DNA from: Patescibacteria group bacterium
Lineage (GTDB): Bacteria; Patescibacteriota; Patescibacteriia; UBA2591; UBA4787
NCBI GenBank assembly: GCA_028715115.1
Contig: JAQUSN010000002.1
Location: forward strand, 68,944-132,943
Reading direction: 5' to 3'
DNA: 64,000 nt
Of this stretch, positions 2,765 to 64,000 are shown piece after piece (position 1 is the stretch's first letter; each line of letters begins with the position of its first letter). Below the pieces are notes generated by a model that was not told where the DNA came from, did not search any database, and worked only from the letters and a program-made list of their open reading frames with translations. The position numbers were made by a program, and so were the translations under genes.

Positions 2765-3577
2765 ATGATTGGAATTTTTGACTCTGGAATTGGCGGTTTG
2801 ACCGTGGTTAAAAAATTTTTCGATTGGTTTGATAAAGATAATTTATCTTATCGACTTTTGTATTTTGGTGATACGGCCAGAACTCCGTACGGCAACCGAG
2901 GGGAGGAGGTTATAAAACAATACGCGCTTGAAGACGCAAAATTATTAATTGAACGCGGAGCAAAAATAATTGTCATTGCCTGCAATACTGTCTCGGCTAT
3001 AGCAACCGATTATTTAAAAAATAATTTATCAGTACCGGTTTTTGAAGTGGTTAGTCCGGCCGCACAAAAAGCAGTTGCCATTACTCGTCATAATCGCATT
3101 GGTATCTTGGGTACTCGCGCTACGATTAACTCGAAGATTTATGATCATTTAATTAAACAATATGCGGCTAAAGCACACAAAAAAATCGGCGTTTTCGAAA
3201 ATAGCGCCAGCTTGCTGGTGCCGCTAGTAGAAGAAGGCTGGCTTGATACACCTGAAACTAAAAGAATAATTAAAAAATATTTATCGCCATTAAAAGCGGC
3301 TCAAATCGACACTCTTATTTTGGCCTGTACGCATTATCCGTTTTTAATCAAAGAGATTGAGGCCAAATTAAATAAACAAGTAAAATTGGTTGATCCGGCT
3401 CTAGAAGTTGTTTTACAGGTAAAAGAATTTTTAAAAAATAATTCTGCGATAGAACAACAATTAAATCATAAAAGTAAGCATCAATTTTTAGTTTCCGACC
3501 TAACCAATCGCGTGCAAAATTTAGCAGCAAGATGGTTGGGAGAAAAAATTAAATTGGAAAAAGTTAATTTAAAATGA
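2765..3577 (+). CDS. murI: glutamate racemase
   Basis: IGIFDSGIGGLTV N-terminus. Both catalytic Cys motifs present (ACNT, ACTHYP). Confidence 0.9.
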   Translation: MIGIFDSGIGGLTVVKKFFDWFDKDNLSYRLLYFGDTARTPYGNRGEEVIKQYALEDAKLLIERGAKIIVIACNTVSAIATDYLKNNLSVPVFEVVSPAAQKAVAITRHNRIGILGTRATINSKIYDHLIKQYAAKAHKKIGVFENSASLLVPLVEEGWLDTPETKRIIKKYLSPLKAAQIDTLILACTHYPFLIKEIEAKLNKQVKLVDPALEVVLQVKEFLKNNSAIEQQLNHKSKHQFLVSDLTNRVQNLAARWLGEKIKLEKVNLK

Positions 3578-3975: not shown

Positions 3976-5118
3976 ATGTTAAATTATTTCGTTATTTTTT
4001 TGGTTAGTTTTTTGACCGGCATAATTTTTACCTGGTTGATTCGCCTTTTGGCAATTAAATTTAAGATTATTGATTGGCCCAAAGCTGACAGCCGCCATAT
4101 TCATCGAGAGGCTACTCCTCTTTTGGGAGGTTTGGCTGTTTTTTTAACCTTTTTCTTAGTTTTGTTCTCCGTTTATTTTAGCTCTGCTTGGCCGGTTAAA
4201 AAAATAGCTCTATTTCAGCCGCTTACCGCTAACATTCATTTAGTTACCCTAAAACAATTGATCGCCATTTTTTTGGCCAGTTGTTTGATAGTTATTGGCG
4301 GTTGGCTGGATGATAAATACCATTTTAAGCCGCGGAAGCAGATAGTTTGGCCGATTTTGGCTACACTCATAGTCATCATTGGTGGCGTAGGTATTAATTA
4401 TTTAAATAATCCGTTTGGTGAGGGTTATCTGTATTTAAATCACTGGCAAATAGAAATTTTTAAAATTAATGGCGTGCCATTTTATTTTACGCCCCTGGCT
4501 GATATTTTTACTTTTATTTGGTTGATGTTGGTTATGTATTCTACAAAGCTGCTTGACGGTTTAGATGGTTTAACGGCCGGTATGGGTCTGATTGGTTCGG
4601 CAGTAATCTTTTGTTTATCAATGCTAACCATTTTCTATCAGCCAGAAATTGCCGTAATGGCTCTAGTGCTTAGCGGAGCTTGTTTAGGATTTTTATTTTT
4701 TAATTTTTATCCAGCTAGAATATTTTTGGGCGAGGGAGGGAGTCTATTGGTCGGATTTCTTCTCGGAACCCTGGCCGTAATTTCAGGAGGAAAAATTGCT
4801 GTTACTTTTTTGGTCTTGGGCGTTCCAATTCTCGATCTGTTATGGGTAGTCGCTCGCAGAGTTTTCCAAGAAAAAAAATCGCCATTTTCAGGCGACCGCA
4901 AGCATCTTCATTTTAGATTACTTGATCTTGGTTTCTCGCATCGCGGTGCGGTAATTTTCATTTGGTTGATTTCTTTGATTTTTGGTCTAGCCTCTTTGTT
5001 TTTAAGAACTAAAGGAAAAATTTTCGTGTTGGTATTTTTTGTTATTTTCATGTCGCTTTTAGCTCTGGTTATAATTTTAAAAGAGAGACGCTTGAAGTTG
5101 AAAAATTATGAAAAATAA
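3976..5118 (+). CDS. glycosyltransferase family 4 polyprenyl-phosphate HexNAc-1-phosphate transferase (WecA/TagO-like)
   Basis: Polytopic membrane protein. DWPKADSRHIHREATPLLGGLAVF motif. KLLDGLDGLTAGMG motif typical of the MraY/WecA superfamily. Confidence 0.65.
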   Translation: MLNYFVIFLVSFLTGIIFTWLIRLLAIKFKIIDWPKADSRHIHREATPLLGGLAVFLTFFLVLFSVYFSSAWPVKKIALFQPLTANIHLVTLKQLIAIFLASCLIVIGGWLDDKYHFKPRKQIVWPILATLIVIIGGVGINYLNNPFGEGYLYLNHWQIEIFKINGVPFYFTPLADIFTFIWLMLVMYSTKLLDGLDGLTAGMGLIGSAVIFCLSMLTIFYQPEIAVMALVLSGACLGFLFFNFYPARIFLGEGGSLLVGFLLGTLAVISGGKIAVTFLVLGVPILDLLWVVARRVFQEKKSPFSGDRKHLHFRLLDLGFSHRGAVIFIWLISLIFGLASLFLRTKGKIFVLVFFVIFMSLLALVIILKERRLKLKNYEK

Positions 5119-5597: not shown

Positions 5598-7163
5598 ATG
5601 TCGACTAATCCACAATCTAGCCACGAATGTCCAGACCACGAAAACGAGGTTATCTCTTTCGGTGAGGCTAATTATCGTAATATGCACCGCCGTTTTGGTA
5701 TTAAAACGCCGGATCGCCGGTCGCATATGTATTTGGTTGGTAAAACCGGAGTTGGTAAATCAACTTTATTAGAAAATACGATTTATCAAGACCTTCAGCT
5801 GGGACATGGCGTGGCCATAGTTGATCCGCATGGTGATTTGGCTGAAAAGGTTTTAGATTTTGTTCCAAGTTGGCGAATTAACGATGTTATTTATTTTAAT
5901 CCGGCTGACGTTGAATGGCCGATTGCTTTTAATATTTTAGAGAGCGTTGATTCGACACATCGACACTTCGTTGCCTCTGGTTTAATCGGCGTTTTTAAAA
6001 AAATCTGGGCTGATTCTTGGGGCCCGCGTTTAGAATATGTTTTGCGTAATGCCATCTTAGCGCTTTTAGAATATCCGGGCAGTACTTTGCTCGGCATTAT
6101 GCGGCTTTTAATCGACAAAGAATTTAGAAAAAAAGTCGTCGGCCGATTAACCGATCCAATAGTTAGATCTTTTTGGGTAGAAGAATATTCTAAGTATCCG
6201 GACAGATTTCAGGCGGAAGCCATCGCGCCGATTCAAAATAAAGTCGGGCAATTTTTATCCATGAACTTGATTCGCAATATCGTCGGCCAGGTAAAATCAA
6301 AAATCGATATTCGCGAAATCATGGATAAAAAGAAAATTCTCATTATGAATTTAGCTAAGGGCAGAATCGGTGAAGATGCATCGTCTTTAATGGGCGCGAT
6401 GATGATTACAAAATTACAAATGGCGGCCATGAGCCGGGTCGATATTGTCGAAAAGGACAGAAAAGATTTTTATCTCTACGTAGATGAATTTCAAAATTTT
6501 GCTACCGAATCATTCGCTAATATTTTATCCGAGGCGCGCAAATATCGTTTAAACCTAATTTTAGCCCATCAGTATATTGAGCAGCTAGACGAAAAGGTGA
6601 GCTCGGCTGTTTTTGGTAATGTGGGCACGTTGGTTTGTTTTCGTGTTGGCGCTGAAGATGCTGAATTTTTAGCCAAAGAGTTTACTCCTCAATTTGATGA
6701 AACCGATTTGGTCAACTTAGATAAGTTCGAGATTTATATTAAACTGATGATTGGCGGCATTACCTCAGAGCCTTTTTCAGCCAATACCTTACCGCCCTTA
6801 GGCAAGCCAGAGAATAATCATGATAAAATCATTCGGGTTTCACGAGAAAAATATGCCGAAAGCAAAAAGGTGGTCGAAGATAAAATCGTTCGTTGGACCG
6901 GCATGGAACCGCCCTCGACCGATCAGGCCAAATTCGAAGCCAAGTGCGAAGGTTGTGGCAATCCGGTTTTAATTCCTTTTATTCCCGACGGTGTTCGCCC
7001 GATTTTCTGTCGCAAATGTTTAAAAAAAATGAGAAAAGAAGATCAAGACAAGGTCGCAGCAGGTAAACAGCCAGATAACCTACCAACTGGTGAACTAAAG
7101 AATCAAACCGGATCTTTAGTACAATCAACTACCTCCGTACAATTAGAAAATAAACAAGAGTAA
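5598..7163 (+). CDS. VirD4/TraG/TraD-like coupling-protein-family ATPase (T4SS DNA-transfer domain) with C-terminal CxxC..CxxC zinc ribbon; soluble, no TM
   Basis: Walker A YLVGKTGVGKSTLL followed by IVDPHGDL. Walker B region FYLYVDEFQNF. LILAHQYIEQL motif typical of the TraG/TrwB/HerA-FtsK clade. Zn ribbon CEGCGN..CRKC at the C-terminus. Confidence 0.5.
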   Translation: MSTNPQSSHECPDHENEVISFGEANYRNMHRRFGIKTPDRRSHMYLVGKTGVGKSTLLENTIYQDLQLGHGVAIVDPHGDLAEKVLDFVPSWRINDVIYFNPADVEWPIAFNILESVDSTHRHFVASGLIGVFKKIWADSWGPRLEYVLRNAILALLEYPGSTLLGIMRLLIDKEFRKKVVGRLTDPIVRSFWVEEYSKYPDRFQAEAIAPIQNKVGQFLSMNLIRNIVGQVKSKIDIREIMDKKKILIMNLAKGRIGEDASSLMGAMMITKLQMAAMSRVDIVEKDRKDFYLYVDEFQNFATESFANILSEARKYRLNLILAHQYIEQLDEKVSSAVFGNVGTLVCFRVGAEDAEFLAKEFTPQFDETDLVNLDKFEIYIKLMIGGITSEPFSANTLPPLGKPENNHDKIIRVSREKYAESKKVVEDKIVRWTGMEPPSTDQAKFEAKCEGCGNPVLIPFIPDGVRPIFCRKCLKKMRKEDQDKVAAGKQPDNLPTGELKNQTGSLVQSTTSVQLENKQE

Positions 7164-59603: not shown

Positions 59604-60614
59604 TTAATTTTTTAAGAATTTTTTAATTAATTTTTTAGCTTTTTCCGTACTTTCATAATTTAACCATTTAACGGTTTTGTCTCTTTTGAACCAGGATAAT
59701 TGACGTTTAGCATAATGACGAGTTTCGGTTTTGATTAGTTCGACAGCCTGTTCAAGCGTTAATTTATTATTTAAATATAAGTTAATTTGCCGGTAACCGA
59801 TGCCGGTCATTGACGGAAGCAGGGGAGAGTATTTATTATTCAGTTTTTTAACTTCATTGATCAGCCCGTTTTTTATCATTTGCTCGACGCGGTCGTTGAT
59901 ACGCTGATAGAGTTTTTGGCGTGGCAACTTAAGCCCAATTTGTAAAATATCAAAAGATGATTTTTTATTATTCCTTGTTTCTGAAAATGGCTGACCAGTT
60001 TTAAGGCAAACCTCGAGGGCGCGGATAATTCGGCGCGGATTTTTCGGATCAATGAAGTCTTTAGCTCCGGGGTCAAGCTTGATTAATTTTTTATATAAAT
60101 AAGTTAAACCGTATTTTTTTATGTCCTTTTCTATTTTTTTTCTTAATTTTAGATCGGCCGCTATAGGCGGGATATTTAAATCATTAATAATTGAGGATAC
60201 GTATAAACCAGTGCCGCCTACTAAAAATGGAATCTTGCCGCGCGATTGAACGTTTCTAATAATTTTAAGCGCCATATCTTTAAAGTCAGCTACGCTGAAG
60301 CCTTCATTTGGCTTTTTTATATCAATTAAATAATGAGGCACTTGCTGAATTATGAATATTGGTTTTTTGTCAATTCTGTTCAAAAAATCTGATTTTTTGT
60401 TTACAGAATTGAGCGCCCCGATCCGCCGGCTGGCAAAGAGGGGTAACCTTATTGTGGGCTTGGCAGTGCCAATATCCATACCCTTATAAACAGTGCGGCT
60501 ATCAGCGCAAATGATTTCCCCTTTGAATTTTTTAGCTAATTTAATAGCAAAATCGGTCTTTCCCGAGCCGGTCGGGCCGATGATGACTATTAATTTATTG
60601 TTTAGAGTAGACAT
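59604..60614 (-). CDS. miaA: tRNA dimethylallyltransferase
   Basis: P-loop IVIIGPTGSGKTDFAIKLAKKF. ICADSRTVYKGMDIGTAKP. Confidence 0.9.
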   Translation of the reverse strand: MSTLNNKLIVIIGPTGSGKTDFAIKLAKKFKGEIICADSRTVYKGMDIGTAKPTIRLPLFASRRIGALNSVNKKSDFLNRIDKKPIFIIQQVPHYLIDIKKPNEGFSVADFKDMALKIIRNVQSRGKIPFLVGGTGLYVSSIINDLNIPPIAADLKLRKKIEKDIKKYGLTYLYKKLIKLDPGAKDFIDPKNPRRIIRALEVCLKTGQPFSETRNNKKSSFDILQIGLKLPRQKLYQRINDRVEQMIKNGLINEVKKLNNKYSPLLPSMTGIGYRQINLYLNNKLTLEQAVELIKTETRHYAKRQLSWFKRDKTVKWLNYESTEKAKKLIKKFLKN

Positions 60615-61499: not shown

Positions 61500-62729
61500 A
61501 CAGAAATCAGCTGCTTTGATAATTTTAACTTTTATAATATCGCCGATTTTTATATTCGGTGATTTTTTAATTTTTACGGTTTTAAAGGTTTTGGTTTTGC
61601 CGTAGAAGTAACCTTTATCATGGTTATTAATCAATACTTCAACTATTTTTTTCAAGTAATTTTTATTATTTTTTAAGGCTGATTTTTTTAAGATTTCATT
61701 TAGAATTTTCCATCGGCGAGATTTTTCTGCCGCCGGCACATTATCTTCCAGCTTCGCGGCTGCAGTGCCGGGCCGAGGCGAATATTCGGCGAGATATGCC
61801 ATATCAAAATTAATCTGTTTCATCAGTTTTGCCGTATTATTGAATTGTGCCTTGGTTTCTTTGGGAAAGCCAACGATAATATCTGTAGAAATAGCAATGT
61901 CGGGCATAGCTTTTCTTATTTTTTTGATCAAATTTTTATAATGTACGGATGTATAATGGCGATTCATAGCTTTTAAAACCTTATTGTCGCCAGCCTGAAC
62001 TGGCAAATGCATGTATTGGCAGATTTTTTTGCCGTTAGCCATTATTTTTATTAATTCATCGGATAGATCTTTCGGGTGGGAGGTAACGAAATTAAGCCAA
62101 AAATTTCCAGGCAAATCATTAATAGTTTTTAATAATTTCGGAAAATTATAATTCTCGGAATAATAGCTGTTAACATTCTGGCCCAAAAGCGTTGTTTCTT
62201 TATAACCGCTGTTGATTAGTGACTTCACTTCATTAATAATTTCTTTGGCCGGCCGTGAGATTTCCGGGCCTCGAGCATATGGTACAACACAATATGTGCA
62301 ATAATTGTTGCAACCGGTTGAAATCGGCACGTAGGCCTGGAATTTAGATTGGTATTTGGGGGTAACAGAAAAATAGTCGGATGAGATAGGCCTCTCTTTT
62401 TTCAGTAATTTAGGTAGTTTATTCAGGTTTTTGATATCAAAAATTAAATCAAACGATTGACTTAATTTTTTTTGGTCTGATTTTAAGACACAACCGGTCA
62501 ATAGAGTGACGATTTTCTTGTTCTTTTTAAGTTTATTCCAAATTTTTATTTTTCCGTAAATACGGTCAACGGCACTCTGTCGGACCGAGCAGGCGACAAC
62601 AGCAATTAAGTCAGCCGATTTTTCGTTATCAGTTTTTTGATAACCCAAGCCTTCCAGAATCGCGGCTAAGCGTTCGGCATCTGACTTGTTCATCTGACAC
62701 CCAAATGCAATAATGTGATAATATTTCAT
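61476..62729 (-). CDS. miaB: tRNA-2-methylthio-N6-dimethylallyladenosine synthase (MiaB)
   Basis: MTTase N-domain (IIAFGCQMNKSDAE). Radical SAM STGCNNYCTYCVVPYARG. C-terminal TRAM domain. Adjacent to miaA. Confidence 0.8.
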   Translation of the reverse strand: MKYYHIIAFGCQMNKSDAERLAAILEGLGYQKTDNEKSADLIAVVACSVRQSAVDRIYGKIKIWNKLKKNKKIVTLLTGCVLKSDQKKLSQSFDLIFDIKNLNKLPKLLKKERPISSDYFSVTPKYQSKFQAYVPISTGCNNYCTYCVVPYARGPEISRPAKEIINEVKSLINSGYKETTLLGQNVNSYYSENYNFPKLLKTINDLPGNFWLNFVTSHPKDLSDELIKIMANGKKICQYMHLPVQAGDNKVLKAMNRHYTSVHYKNLIKKIRKAMPDIAISTDIIVGFPKETKAQFNNTAKLMKQINFDMAYLAEYSPRPGTAAAKLEDNVPAAEKSRRWKILNEILKKSALKNNKNYLKKIVEVLINNHDKGYFYGKTKTFKTVKIKKSPNIKIGDIIKVKIIKAADFCLEGVRLE

Positions 62730-62740
62730 AAATAATTTTA

Positions 62741-62830
62741 CTTGCCCCGTGAATTTTACGAAGTAAAATTTTTACGGGGTTCATTCTTGCCCCGTTGTTT
62801 GACGAAGTCAAGTGTTGCGGGGTGGCAGCC
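62741..62830. repeat. tandem related stem-loops / direct repeat (CTTGCCCCGT..ACGAAGT twice) in the region upstream of miaB
   Basis: Unit 1 is 62741..62764. Unit 2 is 62786..62808. Each CCCCGT pairs with a downstream ACGGGG/GCGGGG. Confidence 0.4.
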
Positions 62831-63040
62831 AAATGTGATTATATGGTATTTCATGGTTTGTATATTTTAGCAAAAAATACATAAAAATCAATCCCTTACC
62901 TAGAAATTTTAGCCAGACCCCTTTGATTGATTTTAACGATTCTTTAAGTTAATTAAATTAGCGAATAGATTTTGTTTAAAAAAATTACGTTTATTAAGGG
63001 TCTGTCTAAAAATCAATCAAAATTTTTAGGTGAGGGACTA

Positions 63041-63069
63041 TTGACTTTTTGTCAAAAATATGCTAGAAT
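63041..63069 (+). promoter_or_regulatory. near-consensus sigma70 promoter TTGACT-17-TAGAAT upstream of the GC-rich cassette
   Basis: -35 at 63041..63046. Spacer 17 nt. -10 at 63064..63069. Confidence 0.5.
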
Positions 63070-63123
63070 AGTAACATAAGAATTAAGGAGGATAAATATA
63101 GTTCTTTAAAATACTTGCGAAAT

Positions 63124-63267
63124 TGGTGGTCATAGCCAGAAGATTCTAATCTCCGCCTCCGCCGGCTGGTGGATAACTGATTAATGTTTTCTGGCTATGA
63201 CTGCCACGCTTCCGCGATATGCGTGAGAAGAAGAGGGTAGTCCTCTAGTACAACCGAGGAGGTTGTT
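63124..63267 (+). promoter_or_regulatory. GC-rich structured leader with long inverted repeat (GTCATAGCCAGAA .. TTCTGGCTATGAC) and strong SD GAGGAGG before the ATG at 63268
   Basis: 13-bp perfect inverted repeat with an about 50-nt intervening loop that contains CCGCCTCCGCCGGCTGGTGG. SD at 63256..63262. Confidence 0.4.
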
Positions 63268-63786
63268 ATGTCAAAAATAGCGCTCTGCGATGCTCGTGGA
63301 CCGCTAAAACAGCTTTTTGATTGTCTCGCCGGAGACAACGGAAGCGATTGGCTGGACGAGCTAAAGAAGATGCTCCGCAAGGACGGCATCATCGACCTCG
63401 ATGCTGACCCATTCCTGCCCAACGGCTGGCAAGTGGAGCAGCACATCAAGGGCGGCTCCTTCAAGTGTGACCCCAACCAAGTGGAGCTCTATCTGGCCAA
63501 CGGCCAGAAGGGCGGCAAGGTCATTCGTGGCCACGAACTCCGCAAGGAGCTTGAAGGCAAGTCGGTTTTCAATGCCAACCTGCTTGATTGGCTGTTGGCC
63601 CATCCTCAGTTCATTCCGGACAGCTGGAAGGGCAAGGCAGTCTTCTTTTGGGGGACCGTCTATCGTAACGCCAATGGCGATCTGTGCGTGCGCTGCCTCT
63701 ATTGGAGTGGCAGCGGGTGGAGCTGGAACTACAACTGGCTTGACTACAGCTTCTACGACAACAATCCGGCGCTGCTTCGCAAGTAA
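63268..63786 (+). CDS. hypothetical 172-aa protein encoded by an anomalously GC-rich (~55-60%) gene with foreign codon usage
   Basis: ORF with strong SD. Uses CTC/GGC/AAG-type codons, unlike the rest of the window. No recognisable motif (W/G/N-rich C-terminus WSGSGWSWNYNWLDYSFYDNN). Confidence 0.45.
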   Translation: MSKIALCDARGPLKQLFDCLAGDNGSDWLDELKKMLRKDGIIDLDADPFLPNGWQVEQHIKGGSFKCDPNQVELYLANGQKGGKVIRGHELRKELEGKSVFNANLLDWLLAHPQFIPDSWKGKAVFFWGTVYRNANGDLCVRCLYWSGSGWSWNYNWLDYSFYDNNPALLRK

Positions 63787-63878
63787 CTCTCGGGACCTGG
63801 GATCCTTGTTCCTTTGGTCCGCCGTCCGCCAACTGGCGGAGGCGGATTGGACCCTTGGAATTTTGGTCTTTGGTTCTA

Positions 63879-63913
63879 GCCCTGCGCGCTTTCGCGCAGG
63901 GCCTTTTCTTTTT
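63879..63913 (+). terminator. Rho-independent terminator after the GC-rich ORF
   Basis: GCCCTGCGCG CTTTC GCGCAGGGC stem-loop followed by CTTTTCTTTTT. Confidence 0.7.
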
Positions 63914-64000
63914 AATTATTTCTAGTAAAATAATATTTGGCGGTAGGTGAATACGCAGGCGGTCAAGGCTTCTTGCTACCGAGGCCAGTGTTTATGCAAC

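Follow-up and report, generated by a model that had tools for sequence, protein, structure and literature searches.

The stretch of Patescibacteria DNA analysed here (the window, 64,000 nt of contig JAQUSN010000002.1, assembly GCA_028715115.1) carries close to its right end, at 63041-63913 of the plus strand, a GC-rich expression unit. In this, a 172-codon open reading frame (ORF) is preceded by a promoter and a structured leader, and followed by a long hairpin and a terminator. The unit is interpreted, with a probability of about 95%, as the target gene module of a chromosomal diversity-generating retroelement (DGR) of a Patescibacteria genome. DGRs are known targeted-mutation systems, common in Patescibacteria, in which the RNA of a template repeat (TR) is reverse-transcribed with misincorporation opposite adenines, and the cDNA replaces the 3'-terminal part of an ORF, the variable repeat (VR).

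All the features described lie on the plus strand, unless otherwise stated. The ORF (63268-63786) is identified as the gene encoding the variable protein by its reading frame, its homologues and the protein alignment. Its ATG (63268) is found 5 nt downstream of the Shine-Dalgarno (SD) sequence GAGGAGG (63256-63262). A putative sigma-70-type promoter is located at 63041-63069, where TTGACT (63041-63046) and TAGAAT (63064-63069) are separated by a 17-nt spacer; it fits the consensus at 10 of 12 positions, and features a TG ahead of the -10 element. The leader spans residues 63099-63256. The intrinsic terminator (63879-63912) consists of a stem-loop (63879-63902, GCCCTGCGCG-CTTT-CGCGCAGGGC), in which 9 of the 10 base pairs are G-C and the loop is 4 nt long, and of a T run.

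The GC content of 1-kb bins ranges from 0.31 to 0.43 along the window, and reaches 0.505 in the last bin. Measured every 100 nt, GC is 0.29 at 63050-63149, 0.49-0.62 at 63150-63899 and 0.41-0.43 afterwards. The target ORF has a GC content of 0.56, and its GC content at third codon positions (GC3) is 0.72, versus a median GC3 of 0.35 in the 46 window ORFs of at least 150 aa. The only other ORF with a GC3 above 0.41 (63401-63925, 0.56) overlaps the target out of frame. Codon choice is inverted, the AAG:AAA ratio being 12:2 in the target and 368:1247 in the remaining window. An earlier sequence-only reading had pictured the region as a self-contained expression unit of deviant composition, with a jump to high GC and different codon usage near 63120. 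Its promoter, structured leader, SD, ORF and terminator were all found where it had placed them, and the spurious overlapping antisense ORFs that it mentioned are also present.

The DGR cassette and its target protein

The exact protein is encoded by contigs of four assemblies, two NCBI metagenome-assembled genomes (MAGs) and two Logan run assemblies. Three of these show 0 mismatches to the window over 5.7-10.7 kb and run past base 64000; the fourth has 3 mismatches, all at 60276-60333, about 3 kb upstream, and none at the junction between AT-rich and GC-rich DNA. In L002, the longest window-identical contig (window coordinate = L002 + 58287), a repeat search revealed a 127-nt direct repeat, formed by the ORF 3' end and by a copy 505 nt downstream, about 93-94% identical. 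Since the two copies differ at adenines, the pair has the signature of a DGR, the ORF copy being the VR and the downstream copy the TR (L002 5880-6006, would-be window positions 64167-64293). On the window-identical contigs, TR is followed by avd on the minus strand (L002 6007-6399, would-be 64294-64686), and then by a reverse transcriptase (RT) gene on the plus strand (L002 6400-7422, would-be ~64687-65709; PF00078). As expected of a DGR accessory gene, avd has a precomputed match to PF22296 (bAvd), found likewise in L005-L007. The RT frame is open for about 340 codons, aligns with the 332-aa RT of L005, and holds LGNLTSQ and the catalytic YADD, which at motif level fit the (I/L)GxxxSQ and YxDD signatures of DGR-clade RTs. 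The remainder of the element begins about 170 nt beyond the window end, and the sequence-only reading missed the DGR because TR, avd and RT sit just beyond this limit.

VR (63662-63782) consists of 121 nt at the ORF 3' end, and corresponds to codons 132-172 of the 172. All of its 7 internal differences fall at TR adenines (63679, 63695, 63707, 63715, 63745, 63749, 63754), and are nonsynonymous changes at AAY-type codons: in place of the TR codons AAT, AAC, TAC and AGG, VR has GAT, TAC, AGC, TGC, AGT and GGG. Both the substitution of TR adenines and the location of VR at the target 3' end, with variable codons of the AAY type, are distinctive of DGRs. Two extra mismatches (C in TR, G or A in VR) lie at and beyond the boundary of the homology. 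The end of VR is marked by a 16-nt GC-rich, adenine-free tract (63765-63780, TCCGGCGCTGCTTCGC), in the position of the initiation of mutagenic homing site (IMH). VR/TR identity stops after ...GCAA (63782 here) in all the 35 cassettes compared; past this point VRs feature GT(T/A)(G/A)A, with a stop codon, and TRs CTCTC.TCATTTCTC. At sequence level the organization is IMH-like, a GC-rich VR end that differs from TR being followed by an inverted repeat. No second VR or target paralogue was found inside the 64-kb window.

The target protein has a variable, helical N-terminal part and a C-terminal domain, about 130 aa long, that is conserved. Its AlphaFold model has a mean predicted local distance difference test (pLDDT) score of 89, with block means of at least 94 from residue 41. 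Fold matches are weak, and mostly involve C-type-lectin-like domains, TvpA and Mtd among them; the target domain may be C-type-lectin-like. Retrohoming would diversify some 30 codons, at positions corresponding to the ligand-binding face of this small domain. The sequence-only reading had assigned the ORF to no recognisable family. This holds for curated libraries, as no family was hit in Pfam and PHROGs, and a profile search of PDB sequences gave chance integrin matches alone (E ~1). It does not hold in general, since 581 homologues exist (E<=0.01), all annotated as hypothetical, with one exact match in NCBI. Identities to the target range from 46 to 68%, with conserved columns, and the protein alignment depicts a fixed scaffold with hypervariable C-terminal positions.

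Named homologues come from Patescibacteria, Parcubacteria or Minisyncoccia MAGs, bar a few bins (Gammaproteobacteria, Micavibrio, Methylocapsa) with doubtful labels; none of them is actinobacterial, and no match was found in the phage records searched. With each GTDB species represented by one genome, 395 loci encoding relatives were found, the best 80 of which have been examined, and metagenomes yielded at least 506 further loci. TR, avd and RT were sought in the genome loci within the 4 kb fetched around each target. In about 35 of the 80 species-representative loci a TR is found 310-420 nt past the stop codon, and TR mismatches nearly all involve TR adenines (e.g. 12/12, 19/20, 23/24). The target-TR-avd-RT layout of the window-identical contigs is shared by the locus of homologue P0095 and by about half of the loci examined.

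About half of the family members lack TR, avd and RT in the 4 kb (L013, L014, L016, L019, L025-L027, L041, L058, L076 and others). They retain the GC-rich ORF, the leader, the P0 helix described below and the post-stop hairpin, and may be remote, orphan or retired DGR targets. Tandem target genes, each endowed with its own leader, are found in L010 (second leader at 2970-3098) and L021 (4564-4674). In L056, from a Patescibacteria-type MAG, a c-di-GMP-II riboswitch (6496-6615; 60.2 bits, above the gathering score) is located about 1.6 kb downstream of TR (4759-4885), past the expected avd and RT.

Some data weigh against the identification of the unit as a DGR target. TR, avd and RT are all outside the window, and are known from identical overlapping contigs alone. 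Differences from VR involve 7 of the 33 TR adenines. The 3' hairpin is far longer and less GC-rich than the canonical one (7-10 bp stem, GRNA loop), and its covariation is modest. One and the same VR is shared by all four assemblies, and the 90% cluster of the protein has a single member. Because VR does not vary across the four assemblies, current activity of the element is at most presumptive.

Transcription of the TR-containing RNA may start close to the window end, near 63938. A putative promoter and the RNA 5' end are located at 63926-64000, where the window cuts the feature, with a -10-like TAAAAT (63926-63931) and GGCGGTAGGTGAATACGC (63939-63956). This segment, along with L002 5639-5879, probably corresponds to the start of a structured 5' part of the TR RNA, about 240 nt long. 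The post-terminator motif GG(C/T)GGTAG(T)AGGTGAATA recurs, by eye, in several homologous cassettes. The TR end coincides with the 3' end of the antisense avd (L002 6001-6010) in all TR-bearing loci, so that the RNA downstream of TR runs antisense to coding sequence of avd. In the Bordetella phage BPP-1 DGR, the priming spacer sits in the RNA segment after TR. A TCTCCC...GGGAGA hairpin is found just after TR in several loci. The first ATG, GTG or TTG of the RT frame is preceded by 86 open codons (L002 6400-6660, would-be 64687-64947), which align with the N-terminus of the L005 RT. A non-standard ATA codon, with AAGGAAG ahead of it, is the probable start of translation, and the protein was shortened to 254 aa by gene callers.

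Leader RNA, long-range helix and 3' hairpin

A covariance model (R1), derived from the alignment of 13 upstream regions, identifies the leader with a score of 57.3 bits (E 8e-13), as its sole match in the window. In the 13 regions the leader starts with AGTTCTTT(A/G)A, and features in succession ..ACTTGCG, the hairpin P1, a short variable hairpin and a conserved AGCCCGCTGGCA. The -10 element is found about 8 nt ahead of AGTTCTTT in most homologues, versus 30 nt at the window locus. Candidate transcription start sites are thus about 63076, judging from the TAGAAT box, and about 63100, where the conserved AGTTC lies. Of the 80 genome loci, about 48 have a plus-strand R1 match immediately before the ORF, as do 38 of 64 loci from metagenomes. 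The leader folds better than shuffled sequences (z = -5.8; 0/200 shuffles equal).

P1 (63124-63206) is formed by arms at 63124-63151 and 63179-63206, and contains the 13-bp perfect inverted repeat (63129-63141 / 63189-63201) already spotted in the sequence-only reading. Its consensus is TTTGCCATAGCAGAAAG ... CTTTCTGCTATGGCAAA. In 36 sequences 94.9% of the positions are paired, and 17 of the 21 pairs change on both sides; the observed value was reached by 0/500 shuffles, and slid controls gave 35-50%. Conserved G-U pairs and higher scores on the plus strand suggest that P1 is an RNA structure and not a DNA palindrome. The suggestion that the leader may be a cis-regulatory RNA thus finds support both in its recurrence upstream of homologous ORFs and in the covariation of its main hairpin. 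An integron attC-like or MITE-like (miniature inverted-repeat transposable element) mobile cassette bounded by the P0 repeat was also considered, and discarded because conservation reaches the promoter upstream and the conserved G-U pairs denote a structure at the RNA level.

The leader corresponds to no known Rfam family. Scanning 62000-64000 against Rfam 15 at E<=10 gave noise only, and no credible match on 63070-63267. In the continuing contig and 18 homologous loci nothing was found on leader, 3' hairpin and pre-TR region, bar a sub-threshold RT-7 match between terminator and TR (L002 5713-5778; 24.9 bits vs a gathering score of 116.8); no leader of the 18 loci attained the gathering score of any family.

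At the other end of the leader, the SD sequence is held in a predicted hairpin (63250-63266, ACAACC/GGTTGT), found in both minimum-free-energy and centroid structures. By eye, homologues have an analogous hairpin right before AAGGAG, as CGC(A/G)AC...GT(T/C)GC in L028 (2270-2304), L032 (690-724) and L054 (3820-3862). The arms of these hairpins are similar in sequence to CGCAA, at the VR/TR end, and to TTGCG, in the P0 5' strand, and alternative pairings among leader 5' flank, SD region and stop-codon region are therefore possible.

The 5' flank of the leader includes a 10-nt tract (TACTTGCGAA, 63112-63121), which is complementary at 10/10 positions to the ORF end (TTCGCAAGTA, 63776-63785). The latter comprises the last VR bases and the initial TA of the stop codon (TAA), and straddles the site at which VR departs from TR. 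A single match of 10 nt at the window locus could occur by chance. The two strands of this helix, called P0, covary across loci, as shown by the pairs TCAACTTGC/GCAAGTTGA, TTACTTGCA/TGCAAGTAA and CTACTTGCA/TGCAAGTAG. In 33 genome loci the longest Watson-Crick run averages 6.85, versus 5.81±0.19 with permuted partners (0/200 as high), and concordant double changes are seen at two individual positions. The result was replicated in 38 non-redundant loci from metagenomes, taken as an independent set (7.29 vs 5.93±0.20; 0/300 permutations as high), in which the compensatory pairs CTAAC/GTTAG, CTCAAC/GTTGAG and GCTTGCGAG/CTCGCAAGC were found.

The stop codon is followed by a long imperfect hairpin (63792-63877, 86 nt), which is multi-layered and ends with a GC-rich stem and a 4-nt loop at the apex (63818-63846). 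The folding of the 3' untranslated region (UTR) has a z of -5.85 (0/200 shuffles equal), and comparable hairpins are predicted in most homologues among those listed. Evidence from alignments is mixed. With a structure set by hand on a sequence-only alignment, 68% of the positions are paired versus 22-60% in slid controls; RNAalifold predicted no pairs on the MAFFT alignment of 31 post-stop regions, owing to register shifts. A hairpin/cruciform after VR is needed for DGR target recognition (PMC3240598), and the 63792-63877 hairpin, which may have the same function, occupies the matching position.

A TCCGCC-TCCGCC module is found at the P1 apex (63152-63173). It is locus-specific, as no other leader of alignment A3 contains it. 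In the form TCCGCC.TCCGCC...GGCGGA it is found at the apex of both P1 and post-VR hairpin, occurring twice in 64 kb (63152, 63818), and is missing from the hairpins of homologues. The tracts 63152-63173 and 63825-63846 are 86% complementary. The two modules could engage in a kissing interaction, provide a shared protein site or represent a small palindromic insertion.

In P0 the 5' flank of the leader would pair with a partner some 650 nt downstream, at the stop codon, and P1 and the post-VR hairpin would be brought together; this end-to-end pairing may act on the variable-protein mRNA by controlling its stability or its translation. Family members lacking TR, avd and RT in 4 kb (e.g. L019, L076, L041, L058, L027) have leader and P0 as well. 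A role at the mRNA level (stability, or coupling of termination to initiation) is favoured in part because P0 persists where TR and RT are not nearby. On balance, leader and P0 seem to constitute a real, undescribed element that controls stability or translation of this mRNA.

Alternatively, leader and P0 might serve the definition of the DGR target site rather than expression, by marking the VR end versus the TR end, or by recruiting the RT-Avd-cDNA complex. P0 spans precisely the VR/TR divergence point, covaries with VR-specific bases including the stop codon, and would join P1 and post-VR hairpin in one junction. P0 could thus mark the VR-specific junction, as an equivalent of IMH, and form along with the post-VR hairpin a composite junction recognised by the RT-Avd-cDNA complex. 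The persistence of leader and P0 at loci with no TR, avd and RT in 4 kb argues against this, and it is rather unlikely that leader hairpin and P0 represent an as yet undescribed RNA part of the DGR targets of Patescibacteria, acting in retrohoming itself. Were they to act in this way, the family-wide GC3 excess of targets would be a footprint of retrohoming.

Other repeats are found upstream of the target promoter. A 150-nt AT-rich imperfect palindrome (62890-63040; arms 62892-62934 / 62998-63037) separates the promoter from a miaB-like gene. The palindrome is present in single copy in the window, and gave spurious matches to plant miRNAs in Rfam (E = 0.005). Two related hairpins, CCCCGT...ACGGGG and CCCCGT...GCGGGG, are arranged in tandem at 62741-62825, just upstream of the start of the minus-strand miaB-like gene (62729). 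They include a direct repeat of CTTGCCCCGT, 45 nt apart, and have no Rfam match.

Base composition and origin of the target gene

The high GC content is a property of target genes and structured UTRs throughout the family. At 79 loci the mean GC content of the ORF is 0.55, versus 0.455 in the flanks, the difference exceeding 0.05 in 61. In 30 of 30 cassettes the GC content of the target (0.549; 0.525 in the non-VR part) is higher than that of avd and RT (0.428). The GC content of avd and RT correlates with that of the host (r = 0.81), that of the target less so (r = 0.38). The contrast is sharp within single elements, GC3 being for instance 0.77 in the target and 0.27 in RT. Structured untranslated regions explain part of the GC island, and the ORF region itself is mildly over-structured (z = -2.57 vs shuffles). 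Adenine avoidance, as a protection from mutagenesis at A residues, was evaluated as cause of the high GC3 and set aside, since A3 (0.145) and T3 (0.20) give no strong A-specific signal and C3 is highest. With regard to a possible exchange of the target independently of RT, target and RT identities give a Mantel r of 0.18, reached in 151 of 2000 permutations, identities being saturated at about 61%.

The sequence-only reading had proposed a recently acquired foreign gene, with a high-GC host such as an actinobacterium as plausible donor; the composition of such a gene would not yet have drifted to that of the recipient. The deviant GC and GC3 of the target and the weak correlation of its GC with that of the host are in line with this hypothesis, and atypical GC is taken as evidence of lateral transfer for about 20% of DGRs in the passages of PMC5758913 dealing with the issue. 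A high-GC island should have relatives in the donor lineage and equally deviant linked genes. In contrast, family members are overwhelmingly found in Patescibacteria-type MAGs, with neither actinobacterial nor phage relatives among those searched, and the coupled avd and RT are AT-rich as the host (0.36-0.37 at the window locus). The GC contrast within the cassette therefore rules out co-transfer from a GC-rich donor as source of the composition, and flanking genes and junction are concordant in the four assemblies. The high GC is not a sign of recent import, which is deemed very improbable.

The abrupt composition step at about 63120 had also raised the suspicion of a chimeric join between the AT-rich genome and unrelated GC-rich DNA; this has next to no likelihood, because the junction is contained in two NCBI MAG and two Logan assemblies, the 0-3 mismatches of which all lie elsewhere, AT-rich DNA carrying the cognate TR, avd and RT returns after the terminator, and the promoter-leader-ORF architecture recurs in dozens of genomes. 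The same can be said of the hypothesis that the region is a large GC-rich non-coding RNA and the 172-codon ORF is spurious: in AT-rich genomes structured RNAs frequently stand out as GC islands, and leader, 3' UTR and, to a lesser extent, ORF region are structured here, but a GC3 (0.72) much higher than GC2 (0.38) is a coding signature, the SD is correctly spaced, the conserved protein homologues and the confident fold prediction denote a true gene, and VR/TR differences are all nonsynonymous.

Relation to known DGRs and significance

DGRs of clade 2 are described, in the passages of PMC8144416 (Roux et al. 2021) devoted to them, as restricted to Patescibacteria and endowed with targets lacking recognisable domains. 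By comparison with these passages, and with those of PMC5758913 (Wu et al. 2018) on the DGR set of the candidate phyla radiation (CPR), in which VRs are sorted in the classes UVR1-6, the window element is classed with the clade 2-type DGRs of Patescibacteria. Like the CPR DGRs, it is cell-encoded in a Patescibacterium host; has a small target with a C-terminal VR and neither transmembrane segment nor recognisable domain; comprises a compact RT and an accessory gene of the Avd type; and is subject to adenine-specific mutagenesis. None of the VR classes named in the same passages could be matched to the window target family. GC3 contrast, leader RNA and helix between 5' flank and stop codon were not found in the passages of either paper, and all three appear to be undescribed features at the family level.

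The element shares with the prototype DGR of BPP-1 (mtd-avd-TR-brt) the VR at the target 3' end, a TR about 94% identical to it with differences all at TR adenines, Avd and RT, a GC-rich adenine-free VR end at the VR/TR divergence, and an inverted repeat after VR. Unlike in BPP-1, the order is target-TR-avd(minus)-RT, with TR directly adjoining the 3' terminus of the antisense avd; VR is followed by a multi-layered hairpin of about 85 nt, the BPP-1 one having an 8-bp stem and a GRNA loop; and, instead of a phage tail fibre, the target is a small protein in which neither signal nor anchor is recognised. BPP-1 requires nothing upstream of VR (PMC3240598), whereas the window family has a conserved leader. 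The Rfam families RT-1 to RT-19 are structured RNAs located beside retroelement RT genes, RT-10 being found between TR and RT in BPP-1 (Weinberg et al. 2017, PMC5737381). Unlike these, the leader sits upstream of target genes.

In the hok mRNA of type I toxin-antitoxin systems, pairing of 5' and 3' regions (fbi/tac) gives fold-back inhibition. P0 may be regarded as analogous, being a short covarying helix by which the extreme 5' part of an mRNA is linked to the 3' end, with the whole ORF enclosed, and hok may be a model for how P0 would lock or stabilise the mRNA. The analogy does not extend to sequence or structural homology, nor to an antisense RNA partner or a toxin, and in the window family the P0 3' strand covers the stop codon.

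To our knowledge, few regulatory RNAs have been described in Patescibacteria; the leader is a well-supported structured RNA motif, with hundreds of potential members. When a GC island is met at the edge of a contig or window in Patescibacteria, a DGR target should be looked for before resorting to horizontal transfer or misassembly as an explanation. A gene-specific force would hold target GC3 at about 0.5-0.9, while the GC3 of the co-located RT follows that of the host down to 0.26, and amelioration models fail to explain such a force acting on one gene of a cassette. We know of no mechanistic understanding of how DGRs distinguish VR from TR. A conserved RNA helix that spans the VR/TR junction, and covaries with it, is a possible handle on how DGRs choose their targets.

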